DNA of 64,000 nucleotides from Candidatus Binatia bacterium (GCA_963666515.2 OY762897.2:1792001-1856000); one strand, 5' to 3'. Positions 3 to 12,439 are shown, counted from the stretch's first letter. Numbers and translations are program-made. Notes: generated from the letters alone by a model not told the origin.

Positions 3-1877
3 CTCCTGCTGGACGAAGGCGCTGATCCGGATCTCCGTGATCACGCGGGCAACGATGCACTAGCCGTGGCCCAAGCACAAGGCCAGACCGAGATCGCTTC
101 TCTCCTGGTTCCTGCGGCAACGACAACAGCGAGACTGCAAGCCGTAAACGTTAGTGGACAGACCCCAACTTCGCCGGATGACCCCGTTGTAGACCTGTTT
201 GACTGGCAGGAAGACATCGAGGAGCCGCCTCCGCCGGATAATCCGTCCTGTGTCAATGACGCGGTGGTTCTCCAAGATTTCATCTCCCAGCACGTCCCCC
301 TCGACAAGGATCCCGGTTGGGGCGACATAGAAATCGACCTGCCGGAGCCACAGGAACTTGTCCCCGGGCGCACACCCTTCACAGACGACCAGGAGGACTC
401 GTTGCGCCTGCTGTTTGTGGAGGCGTTAAGGGACGGGCGTGTTCACGAGGATCGTATCGCTGAAGTCCTTGGCGGCACCGCAGATGAAGACGATCCACGG
501 GAGTCAATACTGATTACCAGTCTACGCCATATCCTTGCCGACCTTGGGACCGAGATCGACGACGGTGCCCAAGCCCTGGACGTCGTGCGCGACGCAGACG
601 AGGGCGACCAGGAAAGATACGGCGACGCCGCGGCCGAGGCTCTATCCTTTCTCCGGCTCTGCCAATCCAGCGATACCGATCCTTTCTACCGCTACGCCAA
701 GGACTTGCCCACGGATCGCCTGACCCGCGATGATGAAGTAGCGCTTGGGGAGACAATCGAGCAAGGCATGATGGAGGTACTTGCCACGTTGAGTGCGAGC
801 CCCGCCGTCGTCGCACGGCTTCGCGCAGATTCCAAGGCAATTCTTCGCGGCGATATTCAGTTGCGAATGATGCTCGAATCTCCTGTTGGGGAAGGAGGAC
901 TCGGCGAAAACGATCCCGCTGACGCACTCGGGGACGACGTCCAGACCGATGAGTCATCCGATGTCGCGACTTCCACTCCCCAGATGGCTGCTGGGAGTAT
1001 CGACCATCTGAACTCGATCATCGCGGCTTGCCGACGCGGTATTGAGGGGCAAGCGGAACTCGTAAAGTGCCTTCTCCTTGCCGGCATTGCCCCTTCTTAT
1101 CTGGCCGACCTTCAGGAGATTGCCTTGGAGCATGACCTTGACGGGAACCTCCGGAAACGCATCCACGCGGGCCGTGCAAAAGCGGAGGCGGCCCGGAGAC
1201 GTTTGGTCGAAACGAATCTCCGACTGGTGATCTGGGTCGCCAAGAAGCATGGCGGACTCACGCTCATGGACAGGATCCAGGCAGGGAATATTGGTCTCAT
1301 GCGCGCTACTGAAAGCTTCAACCATCGACAAGGCACTAGATTCTCTACCTACGCCGTTTTCTGGATCAGGCAAGCGATCAACCGCACGGTGGCGGACACC
1401 GGAAGAATCATCCGTCTCCCAGTCCATGTCCACGAGACAATAAACAGGATAAATAAGGCCCGGAAAACGGCAAGGGCCGCAACCGGCCAAGAACCCGATG
1501 TCGACAAGTTGGCAGAGATTGTGGAACTCTCACCAGAGCGAATCAGAGATATTCTCACGGCCTCCGAGGAAGTGGTTCCGTTGGAGGATGTGTGGCAAAC
1601 GGTCGCAGAATTTCCCGATCAGACCGTGCAGACACCGGAGATTCACCTATCCGTCAACGAGATGAGACACCTGACTCGAAACTGTCTGGCTACCCTGGCT
1701 CCAAGGGAAGAGGCCGTGATCCGCCGCCGGTTCGGCATCGGCTGTGACGAACAGACGCTGGAGGTAATCGGCCAGTCCTATGGTCTCACGCGGGAACGCA
1801 TTCGGCAGATCGAGGCAAAGGCAATGCAGAAGCTCATGCGCGCCAGACGTCTCAGACTCTTACAAGGTGTCGGCTGA
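3..1877 (+). CDS. mzaA: Ankyrin-repeat/sigma-70 fusion protein (MzaA-like), 5' truncated by the window edge
   Basis: Frame open from base 3: LLLDEGADPDLRDHAGNDALAVAQAQGQTEIASLL is ankyrin-like. The C-terminus has sigma region 2 (LVETNLRLVIWVAKK, GNIGLMRATESF, FSTYAVFWIRQAI) and region 4 (TLEVIGQSYGLTRERIRQIE). It heads the MutL-Z1-DUF4420-AIPR operon. Confidence 0.85.
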   Translation, partial: LLLDEGADPDLRDHAGNDALAVAQAQGQTEIASLLVPAATTTARLQAVNVSGQTPTSPDDPVVDLFDWQEDIEEPPPPDNPSCVNDAVVLQDFISQHVPLDKDPGWGDIEIDLPEPQELVPGRTPFTDDQEDSLRLLFVEALRDGRVHEDRIAEVLGGTADEDDPRESILITSLRHILADLGTEIDDGAQALDVVRDADEGDQERYGDAAAEALSFLRLCQSSDTDPFYRYAKDLPTDRLTRDDEVALGETIEQGMMEVLATLSASPAVVARLRADSKAILRGDIQLRMMLESPVGEGGLGENDPADALGDDVQTDESSDVATSTPQMAAGSIDHLNSIIAACRRGIEGQAELVKCLLLAGIAPSYLADLQEIALEHDLDGNLRKRIHAGRAKAEAARRRLVETNLRLVIWVAKKHGGLTLMDRIQAGNIGLMRATESFNHRQGTRFSTYAVFWIRQAINRTVADTGRIIRLPVHVHETINRINKARKTARAATGQEPDVDKLAEIVELSPERIRDILTASEEVVPLEDVWQTVAEFPDQTVQTPEIHLSVNEMRHLTRNCLATLAPREEAVIRRRFGIGCDEQTLEVIGQSYGLTRERIRQIEAKAMQKLMRARRLRLLQGVG

Positions 1878-3421
1878 TGGTGGCCAATTTCTCCGAGACA
1901 CGACTACCCGGTTCGCGTCTTGCCCCTCCCCGCCCCTCCGCCATGATTGAGGCTCTGCGCGGGCTCGGCTACTCCGCAGCGACCGCAGTTGCGGACATCA
2001 TCGACAACAGTATCTCTGCCAGTGCCAAGGCGGTAACACTGGAATTCGCATGGGCCGGCGAGACCAGCCATGTGTCGATCTTGGATGACGGGCGAGGCAT
2101 GGACGGGCAGGAGATGGACGCGGCGATGCGACTCGGCGAGCGGAGCCCACTTGACGCACGCGCGGCGAGCGACCTCGGGCGTTTTGGTCTCGGGCTCAAG
2201 ACGGCTTCCTTCTCGCAGTGCCGGCGGTTGACCGTTGCAAGTATCCGGGGCGAGCGTATGAACTGCCTGCGCTGGGACCTCGATGTGCTCTCAGCGTGTG
2301 CGGATGACGGGTGGTATCTCCTTGAAGGCCCGGCGGCGGGGTCGGAGCATTTGCTGCAGCCGCTGCTTTCAGCCGGTCGTGGAACGCTGGTCGTCTGGGA
2401 GCGTCTTGACCGGATCGTTACACCCGGTTCCGACGAGCAAGACTTCCTTGACCTTATTGATGGCGTGGAGCGACATCTCGCCATGGTGTTCCACCGCTAT
2501 CTCGATGGCGAGTGTGCGGGTTTGCAACTGGCTATCAATGGGCGTCCGTTGAAGGCCTGGGACCCGTTCCTTCGTAACCATCCGGCAACTTGGTCCTCCC
2601 CTGTCGAAAAGATCCGCTCTGAGGCCGGTACGGTGGAGGTGCAGTGTCACGTTCTGCCACATAAGGATCACCTCTCGGCTCAGCAGGAGTCGTCGGCGGC
2701 CGGCCCGCATGGGTGGACTGTACAGCAAGGATTTTATGTCTACCGCAACCTCAGGCTGCTCTTGGCGGGAAGCTGGCTTGGTCTTGGACAGGGTCGCTCC
2801 TGGACCAAGGAAGAGGCACATCGTCTGGCCCGGTTGCGGCTCGATATTCCCAATTCTGCTGATGCGGCGTGGAAGATCGACATCAGGAAATCAACTGCCA
2901 GTCCACCGCCAGCCCTCAAGGCGCATCTGACCAAGCTTTCAGAGGAGACACGGGCGCGAGCGCGCCGTGTGTTTGCCAACCGGGGACAACCGGTTGCCAT
3001 CGACCCTGGCCAGCCTGTGGTCCAGGCTTGGCGCGCCGAACATGCGACAGTTGGCATCCGATACAGAATCGACCGCGACCATCCCGCCGTGCGATCAGTT
3101 CTCGACGATGCAGGCAACATTGCCGCACCTGTTCAAGCTATGCTGCGGGTGATCGAGGAGACGGTGCCCATACAGCGCATCTGGCTCGACACCACCGAGG
3201 GACAAGAGACACCCCGGACAAATTTCGCCGGTGAGCCCTCTTCGGAAGTACGCAAGGTCCTTATGGTGATGTTCCGTAATCTGGTTCTGCGCAAGAACAT
3301 GTCGCCACATCTCGCACGGCAACGGCTTCTTCAAACAGAGCCGTTCAACAATTACCACGATCTCATCGCCTCACTGCCCGATGATCCACACCCAGGAGAA
3401 CCGGATGGCGTCCACGACTGA
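1877..3421 (+). CDS. mzaB: GHKL (MutL/MORC-like) ATPase, MzaB-like
   Basis: Motifs ADIIDNS, DDGRGM and GRFGLGLK; TGATG overlap with the upstream stop. Confidence 0.85.
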   Translation: MVANFSETRLPGSRLAPPRPSAMIEALRGLGYSAATAVADIIDNSISASAKAVTLEFAWAGETSHVSILDDGRGMDGQEMDAAMRLGERSPLDARAASDLGRFGLGLKTASFSQCRRLTVASIRGERMNCLRWDLDVLSACADDGWYLLEGPAAGSEHLLQPLLSAGRGTLVVWERLDRIVTPGSDEQDFLDLIDGVERHLAMVFHRYLDGECAGLQLAINGRPLKAWDPFLRNHPATWSSPVEKIRSEAGTVEVQCHVLPHKDHLSAQQESSAAGPHGWTVQQGFYVYRNLRLLLAGSWLGLGQGRSWTKEEAHRLARLRLDIPNSADAAWKIDIRKSTASPPPALKAHLTKLSEETRARARRVFANRGQPVAIDPGQPVVQAWRAEHATVGIRYRIDRDHPAVRSVLDDAGNIAAPVQAMLRVIEETVPIQRIWLDTTEGQETPRTNFAGEPSSEVRKVLMVMFRNLVLRKNMSPHLARQRLLQTEPFNNYHDLIASLPDDPHPGEPDGVHD

Positions 3422-4399
3422 CCAACGGGTAATCAAGCTCGTTCAGGAACTCCTCCTCGATGAGGAAAACAGGGCAGCAGTTACACCTGCTGTAATCGGT
3501 GAGAAAATCGAGCTTGTACTCACCATGAACCCGAGATGGCGCGATGGGCTTGACAAACAGGCGATTACGGATGAACTCATCCGCCGGTTCAGCCTCTGGA
3601 TCGGCCAAGACACTACCCTCCAAAGCACCGCGGGCCACAAGGATTGGCTGACAACGGCCCGCAAGCAGGATTGGCGATACTGGCAGCGCTATCGCGAATG
3701 GCTGGAGCGAGACCTGTCCTTCAAGGTCGTCGAAGGACTTGACCGGTCCACGGATTCCGTTCTCGCCTTACTGGAGGACCCCAGACGCGAGGGAACGTGG
3801 GACCGTCGGGGGTTGGTGGTGGGGCACGTCCAATCCGGCAAGACAGGCCACTACAGCGGCCTCATCTGCAAGGCTGCCGATGCCGGCTACAAGATCGTCA
3901 TCGTGTTGGCGGGTTTACACAACAATCTGCGTTCACAGACACAAATGCGTCTCGATGAAGCATTCCTCGGCTACGAGACAAGCGCCTTCAATGACGAGGC
4001 TTTGGTACCCTTCGGCGTCGGGGAAATTGATGCGGACCCCGACATACGGCCAAACTATGCGACCAACCGCACGGAGAAAGGGGATTTCAACACGCGAGTC
4101 GCAAGGAATTTCGGCATCACCCCTGAAAAGCGCCCCTGGCTCTTTGTCGTGAAAAAGAACAAATCCGTCCTTACGCGGTTGCTTGACTGGCTACGCAATC
4201 ACGTCGCCAACTCCCAAGATCAAGAGACGGGTCGGCGAATAGTCACCAATCTGCCACTCCTCCTCATAGATGACGAGGCCGACCACGCTAGAATCCTTGA
4301 TCGACAGGATCTTGACTCAGGAAGACAAGATATTTGAACTGGACTTCGTTCGTACATGAATACTATCGTAGGCCATCGCGAGTTGTAACGCTCGGTAGT

Positions 4400-6007
4400 T
4401 TAAGCGACGAGCTTCGCCTCATCGCAAATGGCATCGAGGTTCCTGGTGATGGCGGCAAAGCGCCGATGGGTCTTGGTATTGCCGCTCACGGCGTCGGGCG
4501 CAAGATGGGCCAGGCCGGGGCGAAGGATGCGGTTGTAGACACGCGTGTAGAACATCGCCACCTTGAGGCCGTGTTCGGTCAAGTGGTAGCGGTAGGCGCC
4601 GGGGATGCGCTCGATCAGGCCGTGCAGGCGCAGGCGTCTCAGGTCGTAACTCATTCGGCCCGGGCGCATTGGACTGGGATCGAGGCCCAGGAGTGCACCG
4701 AGGTGCCCGCGCAGGTCGCGGTTGGAGAAGCCGCGGGCCGAAAGAGTGAACAAGAGCAGGGCCTGCATCAGAGCCTGCACGCGCTCATCGGCGAAGCGCA
4801 GGGCCGAGGCGCGTTGTCCGTGGAACTCCAGGCCGCGTTGATGGCGTTGGAGTTCGTCTTCACCCAGGGCACAGTCGTGGCTGATGGTTTCTATCTGCAA
4901 CAGACGACGGTTGGCTGTGAAGCCGACCTGGCACAACGCCGCCAGGTTAGACAGCCGCCGGCCCAGGGCGAAGTCATAGGTGTCGTTGACGGTGGTCTCG
5001 GTGCGCAGCGCCTGCCCTTCCTTGTGGTACTGCTTGATGCGCGAGTGCTTGTAGTCCACGTGCAAGGAAGGGGTGACGCCTGCGGTGATGACCCGGGTAC
5101 GGAACCGACCGGGGGTGCGCCGGGTGACCCGGCGCTGGAAGATCAACTGCACCTGGCTGGGGCGACCGAGATCGAGGTTCTCGCGGATCACGTCCTCGAA
5201 AAAGACGCGGCCCGAGGCCGGGCGGTCGAGCACCTGGGTCAGGCTGAACTCCGCTTGCAGGATGGAGATGTCGTAGCGCAGACCGGCGCGACGGTCCTGA
5301 GGCGTATACGGATGCGGCAGGCGATCGAACCACTTGCGCGCCAGTCTGTCGATGAAAGCGGCATCGAAGCCTTCGCAGATCTGTTGCAGCGCCTCGGGGT
5401 CTCCGCAGCAGCGCACGCCGTTGTCCAAAGCCTCGAACGGGATGCCGCGCTCGCGCAACTGGCACTTGGCGTACTCGTTGCCGTTGAGGCACAGCTTGCC
5501 GTTGTACGGGAAGTAGGTGCAGAACTTGATGAAGAACGGCCCCGCCTGTTTGTCCACGCAATAGAAATACACATGGTTGACCATCGCGGTAGACGAGACC
5601 ACCCACGGATAGGTGACCCCGGTGTCCGGGTTCCGGCGCCGCTCGGTGCGCATCACACGGGCCTTCTCCTGCGCTATCCCGATGTACAAAACCCCTTCGG
5701 TTCCCTTGAACCGCCCCAGGTACTCCTGCGTCACCTCGTCCTTGCGCTGGCCCTTCTTGAAGTGCACCACCTCGATCTGCTCCCGCTCCGCAAAGTCCTT
5801 CACCGCCTGCACGAACTCCCGACTCTTGGGCGCCAGCGCCACCGTCGACGCAAACCGCTGGCCATGGTGCTTGTGCAGATACCCCACTACCCCGCCCACG
5901 CTCTGCAACTGCGGCACATACAGGTTCAAGTACAGGCGATCCACCGACTCGTATTCCAGCGTCACGTGATCGCGCAATACTTCCGCTACGGTTTGTGGTA
6001 GGCTCAT
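4400..6007 (-). CDS. Putative transposase/initiator of the insertion element (535 aa; rolling-circle Rep-like core plus C-terminal winged helix)
   Basis: ATG 6007 preceded by GGAG; only plausible gene in the element; IKQYHK...RTE motif; C-terminal SYDLRRLRLHGLIERIPGAYRYHLTEHG is wHTH-like. Confidence 0.75.
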   Translation of the reverse strand: MSLPQTVAEVLRDHVTLEYESVDRLYLNLYVPQLQSVGGVVGYLHKHHGQRFASTVALAPKSREFVQAVKDFAEREQIEVVHFKKGQRKDEVTQEYLGRFKGTEGVLYIGIAQEKARVMRTERRRNPDTGVTYPWVVSSTAMVNHVYFYCVDKQAGPFFIKFCTYFPYNGKLCLNGNEYAKCQLRERGIPFEALDNGVRCCGDPEALQQICEGFDAAFIDRLARKWFDRLPHPYTPQDRRAGLRYDISILQAEFSLTQVLDRPASGRVFFEDVIRENLDLGRPSQVQLIFQRRVTRRTPGRFRTRVITAGVTPSLHVDYKHSRIKQYHKEGQALRTETTVNDTYDFALGRRLSNLAALCQVGFTANRRLLQIETISHDCALGEDELQRHQRGLEFHGQRASALRFADERVQALMQALLLFTLSARGFSNRDLRGHLGALLGLDPSPMRPGRMSYDLRRLRLHGLIERIPGAYRYHLTEHGLKVAMFYTRVYNRILRPGLAHLAPDAVSGNTKTHRRFAAITRNLDAICDEAKLVA

Positions 6008-6011
6008 GTCC

Positions 6012-6153
6012 GGCTCCGGTTGCTTCGGGCTTTTATGCCCATTTGACCCTTTGAGGTCCGACCTTGCAAGGTCCCATGACCAGGGATTCAATCCCTGCTA
6101 CAAGCGACCGGAGCCAATCCCCTTACCCCCTCGTCGGTCTGAGGCGAAGCCTC
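6012..6153 (-). promoter_or_regulatory. Structured 5' leader/terminus of the insertion element
   Basis: Closing stem 6012-6025/6102-6115 encloses hairpins 6027-6040, 6045-6058, 6060-6073 and 6081-6097; terminal hairpin 6141-6153. Confidence 0.65.
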
Positions 6154-8071
6154 GCTAGTGTTGATACGCGGGAAATCCTGGTGGACGAGAGTGGCAGGCC
6201 AGACGATGAGCATGAGCCTACAGCCATCAATCGGCTCGTCCGCCGAGTCCTGCACGTTTTCTCACGCGCAGCCTATGTCGGATATACGGCGACCCCCTTC
6301 GCAAACATCTTCATACACGAACAGGCATCCACTCGTAACGAGGGTGCCGACCTCTTCCCCGCCGCCTTTGTCATCAACCTTGCAGCCCCCTCCAACTACA
6401 TCGGTCCGTCAAAAGTGTTCGGCGCTCGCACGGAGTTGGATCGCAGCGACGCACTGCCGTTGGTACGACTCGTGGCGGATTTCGATGGATGGATGCCCAC
6501 CAAACACAAGAACGGCCATGTCCCACTATACGAAGGCAGAAGCGAGTTGCCCCCATCGCTGAACGAGGCCATCGACTCCTTCATCCTCGCCTGTGCCTTG
6601 CGGCGACTGCGTGGACAGGAAACGGCGCACTGCTCGATGCTCGTCCATGTTACCCGCTACACTTCCGTCCAGGCACTTGTTCATGCCCAGGTAGAAGAGC
6701 GTGTCCACCATATACACCAGAGACTGTATCGCAGAACGGGAGGACACGAGGCGATCCTTTCGTCCTTGCGGTCACTCTGGGAGCAGGATTTCGCCCCGAC
6801 CACGGCGGCCATGGCCAAGTTAATGCCTGATGAGTTGGCCCATGGCACAACGACCTGGGAGCATATCGAGCCACACTTGGTGGAGACAGTTGCCGACATC
6901 CAGGTACGTATGATCAATGGTACTGCCAAGGATGCACTGGACTACGCCGAGAATCAGGAGACCGGGCTGAAGGTCATCGCCATCGGCGGCGACAAGCTGG
7001 CACGCGGACTCACCCTGGAAGGGTTAACCGTAAGCTACTTCCTGCGCGCCACGAAGATGTACGACACACTGATGCAAATGGGACGTTGGTTCGGCTACCG
7101 GCCTGGTTATTTGGATCTTGGCCGCCTCTATACGACAGGCGAGCTGGTCGATTGGTTCGAGCACATCGCCGACGCTTCAGAAGAGTTGCGAGAGGAATTC
7201 GATTTCATGGCAGCGAGCGGTGCCACGCCACGCGAGTACGGTCTCAAGGTCCAGTCACATCCAGTACTGATGGTGACTTCCAGCATCAAGATGCGGACCG
7301 CCCGTGAGCTCGAATTGTCGTTCAGCGGCGGCCTTTCTGAAACCGTCAACTTCCACCGTGAGGCTTCAATTCTGCGCCAAAATCTTGACACGGCGCGGCG
7401 CTTCTTCTCAACGCTCAACACGCCGGAACGCAACCCCAGGCGTCGTCGCAACGGCGCGGAGCACGCATGGCGTGGGCTTCTATGGACAGATGTTCCCGTC
7501 GACAATGTGCTCAGTTTCTTGGAGGACTACCGCAGCCATCCAGAAGCCAGAAAGGCAAACGGCTTGCTGCTAGCCCAATTCATTCGTTCTCTTGTCGCAC
7601 GGAAGGAACTGACACGCTGGACCGTAGCTCTGATCGGCGGCGGCGAGGGCAAGACCATTTCGCTCGGTGAAGAAGTCTCCGTCGAGATGTTGCAGCGCGC
7701 TGCCCACGGACAGCACCTGGATCGCTACTCCATTCGGCGTCTCATGTCTCCGCGTGACGAAACGATCGACCTCGACGAGACGGCATGGTTGGCTGCGCTT
7801 GACGAAACGCGTCAGGCCTTTCACGCCGATCCCGCCCGCAACGGAACACGAGAGGAGCCAACCGTCCCTAATGGCCCGGCGATCCGGAAGATTCGCCCCA
7901 AGGAGCGGGGCGTTCTGTTCGTCTATGCCATCGATCCGGCTCTCGCCGGTCCTAATGCTGGTTTACCCGCAGATTCGCCGCCCGTCATCGGTTGGGCTGT
8001 CAGCTTCCCTGCAAGCAATTCTGGCGTGCGCGTGAAGTATCGCGTCAACAACATCTACTGGGACCAGGAAT

Positions 8072-9087
8072 ATGGCGGCGCGAACTGACATGGATGACCT
8101 GGACGCGGCATGGCGCGCCCTCCTCGGCAGTTCGGAGGGCGAAGGTGGAAAACTATTCCAATCACCAGCAGCGGGCCGTGCTCTTTGCTTGCCGGCCGGC
8201 ACTTCCCTGGCGACAAGGAAGCCCTGCTCGTCGGCTTCAGCGATATCCGGGCGATTCCGGAATCCCACCTGCCGCAAGGGAACGGCTTCGAGGTCGCTTG
8301 TCTCACCACCGACCCTACAGGAGGTGATCATTTATGGGTGGCGCTTGCCCGCAGGACAGACGGAAGCCGGGAAATCTTCGCGATGATGGCGAAGGACCTG
8401 CTTGCACTGCTTGATAAAGGGGCACCCAGCGAGCAGGGCATGCTTCGCGGGTTCCTGTCACGTGTCCGTGCTTGGCAGGAATTCATGGACCGACACAGGG
8501 AGGGGGTACTCTCTCCCGACGCAGAACTCGGCCTGTTTGGCGAACTGATCGTAATCGACCGCTTTATTGATGCAGGGATACCGGAGAAACACGTCATAGA
8601 CGCTTGGCAGGGACCGCTCGACGGACTGCAGGATTTTTCGCTGGGCGGTGGTGGTATCGAGGTAAAGAGCACGTTATCAGCGAGAGGATTCGTCGCGACC
8701 ATTTCCTCCCTCGAACAGCTCGACGACAGCCTGTGCCAGCCACTATTCCTCGCGGCGGTGCGAATCCGCCTCGACACGACAGGCCTTACCCTGCCTGCAA
8801 TGTCCAACGCGATCCGAGAAAGGCTGCGAGACAACGTGGCGACACTCGACCTTTTTGAGGCACGCCTTATGCAAGCAGGGTTCCTGCGTGCCGCAACGGA
8901 GCGCTACACGCGACAATTTCGTCACGTTTCCACTGCTTTCCTTGCCGTGGACGACAATTTTCCGCGCCTCACGCGAGCAAACGTCGATCCCGCGATTAGG
9001 CGGGCTCGCTATGAGGTCAATCTTGAGATGGCCGGAGCGCCCGATGTCGGTCTTGCACATGCGCTTGAAGCTTTGGGGATGATCTGA
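8072..9087 (+). CDS. mzaD: PD-(D/E)XK motif protein (DUF4420, MzaD-like); probable 1-bp frameshift near 8145, or an alternative start at 8110
   Basis: ELGLFGEL, WQGP...QDF...IEVKST, ISSLEQLD; position between Z1 and AIPR; N-terminus split between two frames. Confidence 0.75.
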
Positions 9088-10878
9088 ATGGAATTGAACG
9101 AATTTCTACTACAAACGCGGGCTGAGGTGAAAGAGGCCATTGCAGACCGCCTCCCTGTACCGAACAGCCCCTATCCTTACGAGGAAACAATCTTCACCGA
9201 GGTGGTCATGGAGCACATGTCCCAGATCGGCATGACCTTCGAACCGGAGCCGTGCCACTACTCGGCCACCGTTGGCAATGCACGGCTGCGCCTCAGCGGT
9301 TACGCGGTCTCCGAGGACGCCGATCAGCTTGACCTGTTCGTGAGTCTTTACGAGGGCGTCGAGAGTGTTACCTCGATCCCCGATTCGGAGACAAAAACTG
9401 CTGCCGCTCAGTGCCTGCGTTTCCTGAAGCGCTGCGCAGAGGGGCGGCTCGCCGGAACCATGGATCAATCCAACGACGCCTATCCCGTCGTGCACACCAT
9501 CCAGGATGTCTATCCGCAACTCGATCAGATCCGCATCTATGTACTGACCGACCGCCAAGCCAAAGCAAAAAACTTCAAGACCCGAGAGGTACACGACAAG
9601 ACCGTCAAGCTGGAGGTCATGGACATTGAGCGCCTCTGCCGGCACTGGTCAGAAGGAAAGCCACGAGACGAACTCATAATCAATTTTCAGGAAGTATCGG
9701 GCGGCGCACTTCCCTGCGTCTATGTGCCCGGCGAGACGGCTGACTACGACTACGCCCTGACCGCCATTCCCGGCGAGGCCCTGCGTTTCATCTACGAGAA
9801 GTACGGCGCACGATTGCTGGAGGCCAATGTCCGCTCCTTCCTCAGTGCCAGCGGGAAGGTGAATAAGGGTATCAGCGAGACACTGCGAAGGGCACCCGAC
9901 CGCTTCATGGCTTACAACAACGGCATCGTCCTCGTCGCGGACGAAATGCGCATGGGGTCGGCCGAAAACGGCGCACCAGGCATCCTCTGGCTCAAGGGCA
10001 TGAACATCGTCAATGGCGGCCAAACCACGGCGTCGCTCTATTTCACAAAAAAGAGGGTTCCAGATACGGACCTCCGCCGTGTCCGGGTTCCGGCCAAGAT
10101 CATCGTGTTGCACTCCGATGATCCTGCAGGAGAAGAGGGCCTGATCTCCGACATATCGAAATACGCCAACAGTCAAAACTCGGTGCGATTATCTGATCTG
10201 TCGGCAAACAGGCCCTTTCATATCGAAGTCGAGAAGCTTTCTCTCACCGTCTATTGTCCAGATGGCGTGGGACGATGGTTTTACGAACGGGCTGCTGGCA
10301 GCTACAAGACCATGTTAACGCGCGAGGGCACGACCCCGGCAAAGCTTCGCAAATTGAAAGCCGACCTTCCCTCATCTCGCAAGATCATCAAGACGGATTT
10401 GGCCAAATTTCTCAATGCCTGGGAACGCAAACCCCACTATGTCAGCCTGGGCGCACAGAAAAATTTTGAGCGCTTCATGGATGATTTCGCGGCTGGGGAT
10501 GCACAACAAGAGAGACCACTGCCAAGTGTTACCGACTGGAAGCACATGGTTGCCAAGGCGATCATCTTCAAGACAGCACACAAACTGATCCGCCCCATGT
10601 TCCCGGCCTTCCAGGCCAACGTTACCGCCTATACCGTATCCGTCCTGTCCGAGCGCATCGGTGACAAGCTGGACCTCGACAGGGTGTGGCAACGCCAAGC
10701 TATTTCAGAACGGCTCCAAGAACAAATCCAGGTGTGGGCGAGAGAAGTGAACGACACGCTTCACCGCAACGCCGAAGGGCGGATGATTTCCGAATGGGCC
10801 AAGAAGGCTGAATGCTGGCAGGCCGTGCGCACAAGCCTCCTTTCCAAACCGTTGGCCAGCATACCCGAACTGGCTTGA
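9088..10878 (+). CDS. mzaE: AIPR family protein (MzaE-like)
   Basis: LLEANVRSFL, FMAYNNGI, IVNGGQTTAS and ANSQN motifs. Confidence 0.88.
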   Translation: MELNEFLLQTRAEVKEAIADRLPVPNSPYPYEETIFTEVVMEHMSQIGMTFEPEPCHYSATVGNARLRLSGYAVSEDADQLDLFVSLYEGVESVTSIPDSETKTAAAQCLRFLKRCAEGRLAGTMDQSNDAYPVVHTIQDVYPQLDQIRIYVLTDRQAKAKNFKTREVHDKTVKLEVMDIERLCRHWSEGKPRDELIINFQEVSGGALPCVYVPGETADYDYALTAIPGEALRFIYEKYGARLLEANVRSFLSASGKVNKGISETLRRAPDRFMAYNNGIVLVADEMRMGSAENGAPGILWLKGMNIVNGGQTTASLYFTKKRVPDTDLRRVRVPAKIIVLHSDDPAGEEGLISDISKYANSQNSVRLSDLSANRPFHIEVEKLSLTVYCPDGVGRWFYERAAGSYKTMLTREGTTPAKLRKLKADLPSSRKIIKTDLAKFLNAWERKPHYVSLGAQKNFERFMDDFAAGDAQQERPLPSVTDWKHMVAKAIIFKTAHKLIRPMFPAFQANVTAYTVSVLSERIGDKLDLDRVWQRQAISERLQEQIQVWAREVNDTLHRNAEGRMISEWAKKAECWQAVRTSLLSKPLASIPELA

Positions 10879-10959
10879 GGTCGCTGGACTTGGCCAAGCC
10901 AAGGGAAAGATGCGTTTCTCCTATGAACCTTGGCCGTACATGACCGGAGAGGCGACGAC

Positions 10960-11394
10960 ATGACAGGCATCCCCTCCCGAGCACCGCGCAGGCACAAAGG
11001 CGATATCATGTCGCCCGAGAAGCGCAGCGCAGTCATGGCACGCATCAAGGGAAAGGATACCGGCCCTGAACGGAAACTGGCAGCCACCCTTGCGGACCTG
11101 GGGTTTTCATGGGAAAGCCATGTACAGGATCTCCCCGGAAGACCAGACTTCGTGTTCCGGCAAAAAAGAATCGCGGTCTTCGTGGACGGCGATTTCTGGC
11201 ACGGCTGGCGATTCCCGCAGTGGCGCCATAAACTCTCGGAGAAGTGGGCGGCGAAAATCGAAGCCAATCGCCACCGGGACAACAGGAATCATCGCCGTCT
11301 GCGACGTATGGGATGGAAGGTGATCCGTCTTTGGGAGCACCAGTTGGCAGCGGACATCAACGGCTGCACAGCCAAAGTGTCACGCCACCTCTGA
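10960..11394 (+). CDS. vsr: Very short patch repair endonuclease
   Basis: RSAVMARIKGKDTGPE, LPGRPDFV, FVDGDFWHG, GWKVIRLWEH. Confidence 0.9.
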   Translation: MTGIPSRAPRRHKGDIMSPEKRSAVMARIKGKDTGPERKLAATLADLGFSWESHVQDLPGRPDFVFRQKRIAVFVDGDFWHGWRFPQWRHKLSEKWAAKIEANRHRDNRNHRRLRRMGWKVIRLWEHQLAADINGCTAKVSRHL

Positions 11395-11455
11395 GAATGG
11401 CTGCGGTCTCGTTTACTGCTTGGCGACAGGACCATAACCCTGTTAAGGATCAGTT

Positions 11456-12439
11456 ATGGGGCCGAGAGTACTAGATCTTTTCTGCGGCGGCGGTGGGAGC
11501 AGCTGGGGTGCACAGAAAGCCGATGCCGAGATCGTCTGCGCCGTCGACGCTTGGCCCGTCGCCGCTGAAACATACAGGGCCAACTTCCCCCGAGCCCGGG
11601 TTATCAACGCCACTCTTGACGAGAGTTCCTGCTCCGCCCTTCTCGGGGATGTCGGCCCTATCGACATGATCCTGGCCTCCCCCGAGTGCACGAACCACAC
11701 CTGCGCCAAAGGCAGCCGCCCCCGCGACGAGGACAGCAAGCGGACTGCAACCTATGTGATCAGTTTCGCCAAGAAACTGAAGCCGCGTTGGATTGTTCTT
11801 GAGAACGTAGTGCAAATGCGCAACTGGCGCGGTTACACTCCCATGATCAGCAGCCTGGAGGGCCTGGGATACAACGTCCGTCCGCAAACCCTTGATGCCG
11901 TTGACTTCGGCGTTCCACAGACTCGTCGACGCCTTTTCCTCCTTTGCGACTCCGAGGCCATACCCGGTGGAGTAGACAGACCTGCCGGCGAATACCTCTC
12001 AAAGCGCAGGGCGGCGGACGTGATACAATTTGACGGCCCATGGCCATCTCGTCCCCTGTACTCCCGACGGCGTGCCTCGGCGACTCTGGCGAGAGCAGAA
12101 CGTGCGATGGAAGAGCTTGGCAGGGGAGAACCCTTTCTCATCGTCTATTATGGCTCCGATGGGAGCGGCGGTTGGCAGTCGCTCGAACGTCCGCTGAGAA
12201 CTCTTACCACCCTTGACCGCTTTGGCCTCGTGACGTGGAAGCATTGTACTCCGATGCTGCGCATGCTTCAGGTGCCAGAACTCAAGCGTGCCATGGGATT
12301 CGAGAGGGGTTACAGCCTGCCGCATGGATCGAGGCGTGACCGTGTCAAGATCTTGGGGAATGGCGTCTGCCCGCCAGTCATGGAAGCCGTTGTCCGCTCT
12401 CTCCTTTGGCCGCTCATGCGGCATCAACCCGCAACGTGA
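11456..12439 (+). CDS. DNA (cytosine-5)-methyltransferase
   Basis: Motif I LDLFCGGGG, catalytic SPEC, ENV, QTRRRLF and GNGVCPP. Confidence 0.9.
   Translation: MGPRVLDLFCGGGGSSWGAQKADAEIVCAVDAWPVAAETYRANFPRARVINATLDESSCSALLGDVGPIDMILASPECTNHTCAKGSRPRDEDSKRTATYVISFAKKLKPRWIVLENVVQMRNWRGYTPMISSLEGLGYNVRPQTLDAVDFGVPQTRRRLFLLCDSEAIPGGVDRPAGEYLSKRRAADVIQFDGPWPSRPLYSRRRASATLARAERAMEELGRGEPFLIVYYGSDGSGGWQSLERPLRTLTTLDRFGLVTWKHCTPMLRMLQVPELKRAMGFERGYSLPHGSRRDRVKILGNGVCPPVMEAVVRSLLWPLMRHQPAT

Follow-up and report, generated by a model that had tools for sequence, protein, structure and literature searches.

What moves an insertion whose only gene belongs to no recognised family? The question is raised by a 64,000-nucleotide stretch of a Candidatus Binatia bacterium genome (GCA_963666515.2 OY762897.2:1792001-1856000; this whole stretch is the window, and positions are counted from its first letter), in which an insertion sequence (IS) of 1863 bp at 4292-6154 sits within mzaC of an MzaABCDE phage-defence island and carries as its sole gene a minus-strand open reading frame (ORF) of 535 amino acids (aa). 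We think, with a probability of about 70% for the reading as a whole, that the element at 4292-6154 is an active member of a large, unannotated family of insertion sequences and that the 535-aa protein is its transposase, a CTA-specific nick-and-join enzyme that would act through a covalent tyrosine and that joins a domain of the TATA-box-binding protein (TBP) fold to a C-terminal winged helix.

Nine identical copies and an empty site

The host genome holds nine full copies of the element at 100% identity, all of them chromosomal, with sharp junctions, unrelated flanks and CTAG on either side (9/9). In another genome of the same genus (G203), whose flank is 98% identical, mzaC is uninterrupted, and left flank, a single CTAG and right flank follow one another. 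With identical copies at several sites, an empty site in a relative and a single gene of its own, the element has the general properties of an insertion sequence; it is mobile, and its boundaries are defined. No homologue of the 535-aa protein was found in the 27 other genomes of the genus (E up to 1e-20), which, taken together with the nine identical copies here, argues for a recent arrival followed by multiplication. Furthermore, public sequencing data for this organism (four runs) gave a total contig depth 10-17x as high over the element as over the flanks, and many different sequences run on from the element end in the contigs.

These distributions bear on one alternative, that the ORF is a DNA-binding passenger or regulator (a TBP-like saddle with a winged helix) and that the element is moved in trans by an enzyme of the host or of another mobile element. 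We consider this scarcely credible, since the contrast between the genus relatives and the nine copies here speaks for self-mobility after a recent arrival, since the ORF is the only one in the element and is conserved with the same end sequences across many phyla, and since mere binding does not need the invariant polar residues (Tyr, Lys, Arg, Asp and Glu) clustered on the sheet and described below.

The copies are oriented + + - - + on one replichore and + + + + on the other, with GC skew placing the origin near 3.7-3.8 Mb and the terminus near 1.45 Mb. Two other features of this genome (G000) were noted. A remnant of a related element lies at G000:C1:2645461-2645643 (L010/L011), where two fragments of ~92 bp lie fused side by side; they match two separate, non-adjacent stretches of the transposase gene region at 90-92% identity. 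Near the inferred origin, at 3.8-4.0 Mb of G000:C1, cumulative GC skew rises abruptly from -2.1 to +0.25 within 200 kb, which suggests that a large region there is strongly skewed or that the assembly, or an inversion, is responsible.

Insertion at CTAG

The element is bounded, in the orientation of its gene, by the following features:

6155..6158, no strand: CTAG junction on the 5' side of the element
6141..6153, minus strand: terminal hairpin GAGGC-TTC-GCCTC, one base inside the 5' end and followed by AGACCGACGAG
6008..6154, minus strand: 5' non-coding end of 147 nt, a structured domain with a closing stem at 6012-6025/6102-6115 (inverted repeat I14)
4292..4399, minus strand: 3' non-coding end of 108 nt, with a AAACTTGACTCAA-like box just past the stop codon and TCAAG-N5 ahead of the terminal CTAG
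4288..4291, no strand: CTAG junction on the 3' side of the element, present in 9/9 genomic copies and matched by the single CTAG of the G203 empty site

We compared these ends with those of 80 related loci from many phyla and three plasmid loci. All 55 insertion sites (nine here and 46 distinct ones in relatives) end in CTAG on the 3' side, a count that is partly built in, since the 3' end of each site was located by searching for CTAG. On the 5' side, the junction is CTAG in all nine copies of this genome; among the 46 relative sites it is CTAA in 42, CTAG in one (L096) and CCAG in three, and in two Rhodococcus plasmid copies outside the 46 (L013, L138) it is CTAC. Unoccupied homologous sites were available from G203 and from two plasmid sites in relatives (the flank comparisons for L085 and L004 stop short of the insertion site). 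In Rhodococcus, the unoccupied copy of the flank reads ...CTAG and the occupied one ...CTA-C-CGGGGC, and in the Caballeronia/Burkholderia pair only an empty site of CTAG type preserves the Asp codon of the orthologue. Since the fourth base of the 5' junction in relatives is A or C, not G, although the target is CTAG, these comparisons show that this base belongs to the element; by the same comparison with relatives, the G of the CTAG at 4288..4291 (gene strand) is derived from the target. We rejected a model of IS608 type with a CTAA target that supplies the fourth base of the left junction: the Rhodococcus difference (CTAG against CTAC) contradicts it, and the Caballeronia/Burkholderia pair also favours CTAG.

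A single CTAG target together with a fourth base owned by the element leaves CTA at both junctions after insertion. This outcome can be read in two ways, either as a 2-3-bp duplication or as the entry of an element with its own 3' CTA between the A and the G. The first of these leads to a rival explanation, in which the protein carries out metal-dependent hydrolysis and transesterification without a covalent tyrosine, its residues D23, E253 and E337 form a DDE-like triad on a TBP-fold scaffold, and a dimer makes a staggered double-strand cut in CTAG that yields a TA or CTA duplication by cut-and-paste, as with IS630. We hold this explanation to be unlikely. CTA at both junctions with a single CTAG at the empty site is just the footprint of a short duplication, but the element has no terminal inverted repeats, its two ends carry different motifs, and the context of its target is asymmetric. 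Specifically, an A stands four bases before CTA in 40 of the 55 sites (3/9 own copies, 37/46 in relatives), whereas the mirrored T occurs in just 6/55; this one-sided preference argues against symmetric recognition of the CTAG palindrome.

Two unlike ends

The ends of the element are asymmetric. At the 5' end, the family pattern is flank-CTA, one base, then C-GAGGC-NNN-GCCTC-AGACCGNCGAG, and the 5-bp terminal hairpin pairs at all positions in 54/54 distinct 5' ends; the regular expression that collected these ends permitted non-complementary combinations, and none turned up. Compensatory changes were seen at two hairpin pairs (A-T to G-C in six sequences, C-G to T-A in two). The DNA of the 5' leader folds more stably than shuffled sequences (z -3.2 for the gene strand, -3.7 for the other). 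In the closing stem, the 3' arm includes GGAG just upstream of the ATG, and this stem probably hides the Shine-Dalgarno sequence and so exerts translational control. At the 3' end, the boxes AAACTTGACTCAA and TCAAG-N5-CTAG are conserved in the family (alignment of 40 distinct 3' ends), and the fold energy is no different from that of shuffles. A 3' hairpin from a CTTGA/TCAAG inverted repeat was considered and rejected, with no compensatory change and 11 unpaired cells, and we treat its arms as two sequence boxes. Rfam gave no match, nor anything near threshold, for the element, and a sigma-70 promoter scan found no site within it.

Some 5' ends depart from the common pattern. In all six sequences with the A-T to G-C change in the hairpin (columns 11/21 of alignment A4), AGACC also becomes AGCCC (column 25); the base that changes stands two positions past the hairpin, a three-way covariation. 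One of two copies in the same metagenome-assembled genome (L049 vs L050) has an aberrant 5' end, CTA-C-AGGCTTCGCC, with ~3 bases of the usual ACGAGGC start missing, which may reflect an imprecise transposition event. In an Acidobacteriota sub-lineage (L040, L045, L054, L062, L070), CCAG or TTAG plus ~20 shared bases (GATTTCAGAAACAGGAGA-like) precede the terminal hairpin; these copies may share a preferred target, or their actual 5' end may be located upstream of these bases.

A large family without a name

We found no family for the 535-aa protein in Pfam, NCBIfam, PHROGs or PADLOC. A single-protein search of PDB sequences gave no match, and a profile of the family alignment (A1) against PDB sequences gave weak MarR-type matches (E 0.06 or worse) with no Rep chain listed. 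Similarly, Pfam searched with 23 members at E up to 10 returned weak winged-helix matches only, and an ESM Atlas search by features returned unnamed clusters only, at 0.81 or lower. The protein nonetheless has at least 8000 homologues, as all 8000 scored candidates were homologous, and 50%-cluster representatives number 10,355 at E up to 0.001 and 1214 at E up to 1e-30. These occur in Proteobacteria, Acidobacteriota, Actinomycetota, Verrucomicrobiota and other phyla, and 28 plasmid records match (mainly Rhodococcus and Burkholderia-type), in which the copies lie within large plasmids. Each of the 120 homologues listed is either nameless or called "hypothetical protein", and all of them lack a Pfam domain. 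A search for longer proteins, in which the family would be fused to a helicase, for instance, gave none, though this is weak evidence.

A distant subfamily, represented by L120 (G154:C4) and L112 (G152:C148), is 22% identical and ~505 aa long and retains the DR, QAE, KxYxK and RxE motifs. These two loci share the 5' end CTAA-GCCGGACGAGCCGG and the 3' end ...GACTAA, such that a CTA-type junction may prevail throughout the superfamily. A plasmid homologue of this kind carries the annotation of an ArsR-family regulator.

A predicted TBP-like domain and a winged helix

The ORF and its parts are as follows:

4400..6007, minus strand (read 6007..4400): putative transposase ORF, 535 aa and stop
4868..6007, minus strand: putative catalytic domain, two-repeat TBP-like (Rep_trans-like), residues 1-380, with D23, E253, K325, Y327, K329, R335 and E337
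5027..5029, minus strand: codon of Y327, the proposed catalytic tyrosine (KQYHK)
4490..4864, minus strand: winged helix-turn-helix, residues 382-506 (MarR/PadR/ArsR-like)

We modelled residues 1-380 and compared the model (predicted local distance difference test 90.1, predicted template-modelling score 0.88) with 48,161 solved chains. The top seven matches were without exception two-repeat TBP-fold proteins; in Foldseek the domain model matched 4cij_B at E 9e-4 and probability 0.97, but with low template-modelling scores, and with the full model RepSTK1 (4cij) ranked first (E 4e-3, probability 0.97). Among viral models (BFVD), the matches were TBPs, VETF-like proteins and A0A345MNV4 (E 3e-3), which the available part of the 2026 Rep-Arvir paper names as a Rep_trans protein (PMC13107129). 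The predicted domain is a crescent-shaped, 10-stranded antiparallel sheet of two five-strand modules, which is the TBP topology, and neither an HUH nor an RNase H fold was among the structural matches listed. On these models, the fold class of residues 1-380 is TBP-like.

An earlier note on this DNA, made by eye from the sequence, had likened the protein to a non-HUH rolling-circle initiator of Rep_trans type fused to a winged helix. The ORF holds every motif that it quoted, and the broader idea of a non-HUH, initiator-like protein with a winged helix is supported by fold, motifs and genetic context; the structure search, with RepSTK1 ranked first for the full model and no HUH or RNase H match listed, is in line with it. 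Membership of Rep_trans itself, however, finds no support in profiles.

Invariant residues at the probable places of the Rep_trans active site

The available parts of the Rep_trans literature describe a 10-stranded sheet with TBP connectivity (PMC4797284, PMC5714925), in which the nucleophile Y191 lies within R189-x-Y191-x-K193 on strand 10 (Carr et al. 2016, PMC4797284), the metal ligands are D46, D142 (RxD, strand 6) and E214 (RxE, strand 11), and the tyrosine and metal ligands all lie on the concave face (PMC4797284). The placement of D46 on strand 1 is our own assignment, from its N-terminal position in motif N' (PMC5714925). In TBP nomenclature, the Tyr strand is S4', and the strands of D46, D142 and E214 are S1, S1' and S5'.

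In the predicted domain of the element protein, D23 is on S1 (E15-30), Q251-x-E253 on S1' (E246-260), K325-x-Y327-x-K329 on S4' (E322-329) and R335-x-E337 on S5' (E333-340). D23, QxE253, KxY327xK and RxE337 are invariant both in A1 and in alignment A6, which adds two paralogues at 22% identity, and a Tyr stands at position 327 in 224 of the 242 sequences aligned there (of 271 family sequences). Judged by strand order, the invariant polar residues thus appear to occupy the same four TBP strands as the Rep_trans active site. The earlier note had singled out two tyrosines, in DYK and QYHK, and two glutamates, in QAE and RTE. Both glutamates (E253 and E337) proved invariant, as did Y327 of QYHK, whereas at Y319 of DYK 5/23 sequences have H, L, W or F instead. 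Likewise, the YxK and RxE motifs that it gave for Rep_trans, numbered III and IV, are present, but its RxD, motif I, is QxE here.

This pattern also bears on the DDE-like explanation. Three invariant acidic residues are what such a triad would need, but Y327 and its lysines are as invariant as the acidic residues and, by strand order, appear to stand at the place of the Rep_trans nucleophile, and the fold is not RNase H-like.

Residues 105-175 (~5483-5695), in the first TBP repeat, have an invariant polar set of their own (E114, Y147, Y149, D152, N175). This set, on strands pseudo-symmetric to the proposed active site, could form a second tyrosine site or a DNA-binding surface.

Proposed mechanism and the points against it

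We propose that the winged helix and the concave beta-sheet would bind the two unlike ends of the element, recognising the 5' end by its covarying hairpin and AGACCGACGAG and the 3' end by its AAACTTGACTCAA and TCAAG boxes. A divalent metal would be held by D23, E253 and E337, and Y327, flanked by K325 and K329, would attack the phosphodiester after CTA to give a 5'-phosphotyrosyl intermediate, after which the freed 3'-OH ends would be rejoined. The identical CTA cut would be made at the left junction, at the 3' end of the element and in the CTAG target, such that a non-HUH enzyme would perform strand transfer of the IS200/IS605 or IS91 type. We infer every chemical step of this scheme, including catalysis by Y327, the metal ligands, the position of cleavage, a single-strand or rolling-circle route and any dimer.

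Several observations weigh against this mechanism. CTA on both sides of the element fits equally well a 2-3-bp target duplication made by a staggered double-strand cut, as by a DDE enzyme such as that of IS630. An IS608-type lagging-strand mechanism predicts an orientation bias, and none was found among the copies, with the best assignment to replication strands fitting 6/9 (n only 9); the lack of bias is in keeping with the DDE-like explanation. No circle junction, excision joint or empty-site contig was seen in the four runs, for which the search covered assembled contigs only. The equivalence of residues with Rep_trans rests on strand order, not superposition, and motif I of Rep_trans is RxD where the element protein has QxE. 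Motif II (T/SxY/ExG), placed on the strand before the Tyr strand in the available part of the review (PMC5714925), was not recognised: the corresponding strand E312-319 reads TPSLHVDY, then K320, the only nearly invariant residue around it. Finally, a six-frame search for PF02486 gave 0 matches in the host genome, and hhalign of A1 against an 18-sequence Rep_trans alignment (A3) gave a probability of 6%, with sub-domains below 1%. What we describe is a likeness of fold and motif to Rep_trans, not membership of PF02486; on present evidence, the protein probably works like a Rep_trans enzyme.

We also considered that the protein might be mainly a rolling-circle initiator of a small excised circle, such that the element would be an integrated mini-replicon and its insertion and excision side reactions of nicking at CTA. 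The closest enzymes by fold are replication initiators, the terminal hairpin beside the putative nick site resembles a double-strand origin, and many metagenome contigs are about one element long. However, assemblers give element-length contigs for repeats (L022 spans exactly the CTAA junction motif to the terminal CTAG), each of the nine copies lies in the chromosome, sharply bounded and with flanks of its own, the plasmid copies sit inside large plasmids, and the circular joint was not among the contigs of the four runs. We regard this alternative as highly unlikely, and we favour the tyrosine nick-and-join transposase.

Relation to known enzymes and elements

The Rep_trans/MOBT proteins (RepC/RepD of pT181/pC221, RepSTK1, NicK, CTXphi RstA) share with the element protein the two-repeat TBP-like sheet and, judged by strand order, a Tyr on strand four of the second repeat with basic residues two positions either side, RxE on the next strand and acidic residues on strand one of both repeats. 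A DNA-binding domain of its own and a hairpin beside the presumed nick site are also common to both. The Rep_trans/MOBT proteins differ in that the domain of the element protein is larger, with long insertions at residues 31-104 and 187-245, that its DNA-binding domain is a winged helix, that it has no detectable sequence or profile similarity to them, and that it belongs to a multicopy insertion sequence rather than to a plasmid, phage or integrative and conjugative element.

As far as the available part of the source goes (PMC13107129), Rep-Arvir/RepSNJ2 (DUF7845) of archaeal viruses and plasmids shares a TBP-fold catalytic domain that is seen by structure only and precedes a winged helix of MarR type, and a DNA hairpin as cis element; its Tyr and acidic residues match the places of those of Rep_trans, as they appear to do in the element protein. 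Rep-Arvir is archaeal and replicates viral or plasmid genomes, whereas the present family is bacterial and transposon-borne. The element protein had no match to Pfam DUF7845 at E up to 10. TBP itself, which is eukaryotic and archaeal, shows 6% sequence identity to the element protein and has neither the catalytic residues nor the winged helix.

Among transposable elements, IS200/IS605 (HUH Y1 TnpA) and IS91/ISCR (HUH Y2) appear to offer the best functional analogy, with asymmetric hairpin ends, no terminal inverted repeats, a fixed insertion sequence of 3-4 nt and a single gene of tyrosine-nuclease type. HUH enzymes, in contrast, have an RRM-like fold with the Tyr on a helix, where the element protein has a TBP-like sheet with the Tyr on a strand, and neither the HUH motif nor Y1_Tnp or Y2_Tnp was matched in the element protein by Pfam or NCBIfam. 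The TnpA of IS200/IS605 is also far smaller than 535 aa, and the nine copies lack the lagging-strand orientation bias of that group.

Elements of the IS630/Tc1-mariner group insert at CTAG with duplication of TA, and have terminal inverted repeats and a DDE/RNase H transposase. The present element has the CTAG target and TA or CTA on both sides in common with them, but not the inverted repeats or a match to such a transposase; across the DDE/RNase H transposases (IS630, IS5, IS4), no NCBIfam or Pfam transposase model matched and no RNase H fold was listed. The RNA-guided IS110/IS1111 elements have a RuvC-like DEDD domain with a Tnp domain and a long, specific target that a non-coding RNA matches; for the present element, Pfam gave no match, the target is just CTAG with weak context, and the Rfam search was negative.

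The interrupted defence island

The two parts of mzaC flank the element:

left of the insert: part of mzaC matching positions 3-294 of 806 in the NCBIfam MzaC profile, and PADLOC MzaC
6155..8088, plus strand: C-terminal part of the interrupted mzaC, matching positions 291-805 of the NCBIfam MzaC profile

The genes around mzaC match MzaA, MzaB, MzaD, MzaE, Vsr and Dcm. Positions 3-12439 hold a complete anti-phage island, MzaA-MzaE, and after it vsr and a gene for a dcm-type methyltransferase; the MzaA sigma-factor gene of the island is cut by the start of the window. Since the insertion inactivates mzaC, the Mza system is probably non-functional in this strain.

Significance

The chemical classes of prokaryotic transposase are the DDE, DEDD and HUH-tyrosine enzymes and the serine and tyrosine recombinases. 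On balance, we lean towards the view that this element is the founding example of a further class, in which a TBP-fold, Rep_trans-like tyrosine nuclease nicks and joins asymmetric, hairpin-bearing ends specifically at CTA to move a very widespread IS family. In our literature search, neither this family nor any transposase of the Rep_trans or TBP fold was described, although most subscription journals and ISfinder lay outside it, and an earlier description is possible. The available part of a 2017 review lists replication and conjugation only as roles of Rep_trans proteins (PMC5714925).

Since the listed copies of the family are named "hypothetical protein" or are nameless, its insertions escape IS annotation and analyses of gene disruption; here the gene lost in this way serves phage defence. 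With its short, fixed cleavage motif and one compact protein, the element would make a tractable system for biochemistry. If the proposed mechanism is true, a Rep_trans/TBP-fold transposase adds a class, and non-HUH rolling-circle enzymes would have entered transposition separately from the HUH enzymes, which did so in IS200/IS605, IS91 and Helitrons. Each of the two lineages of nicking enzyme would then have come to serve replication, conjugation and transposition alike.
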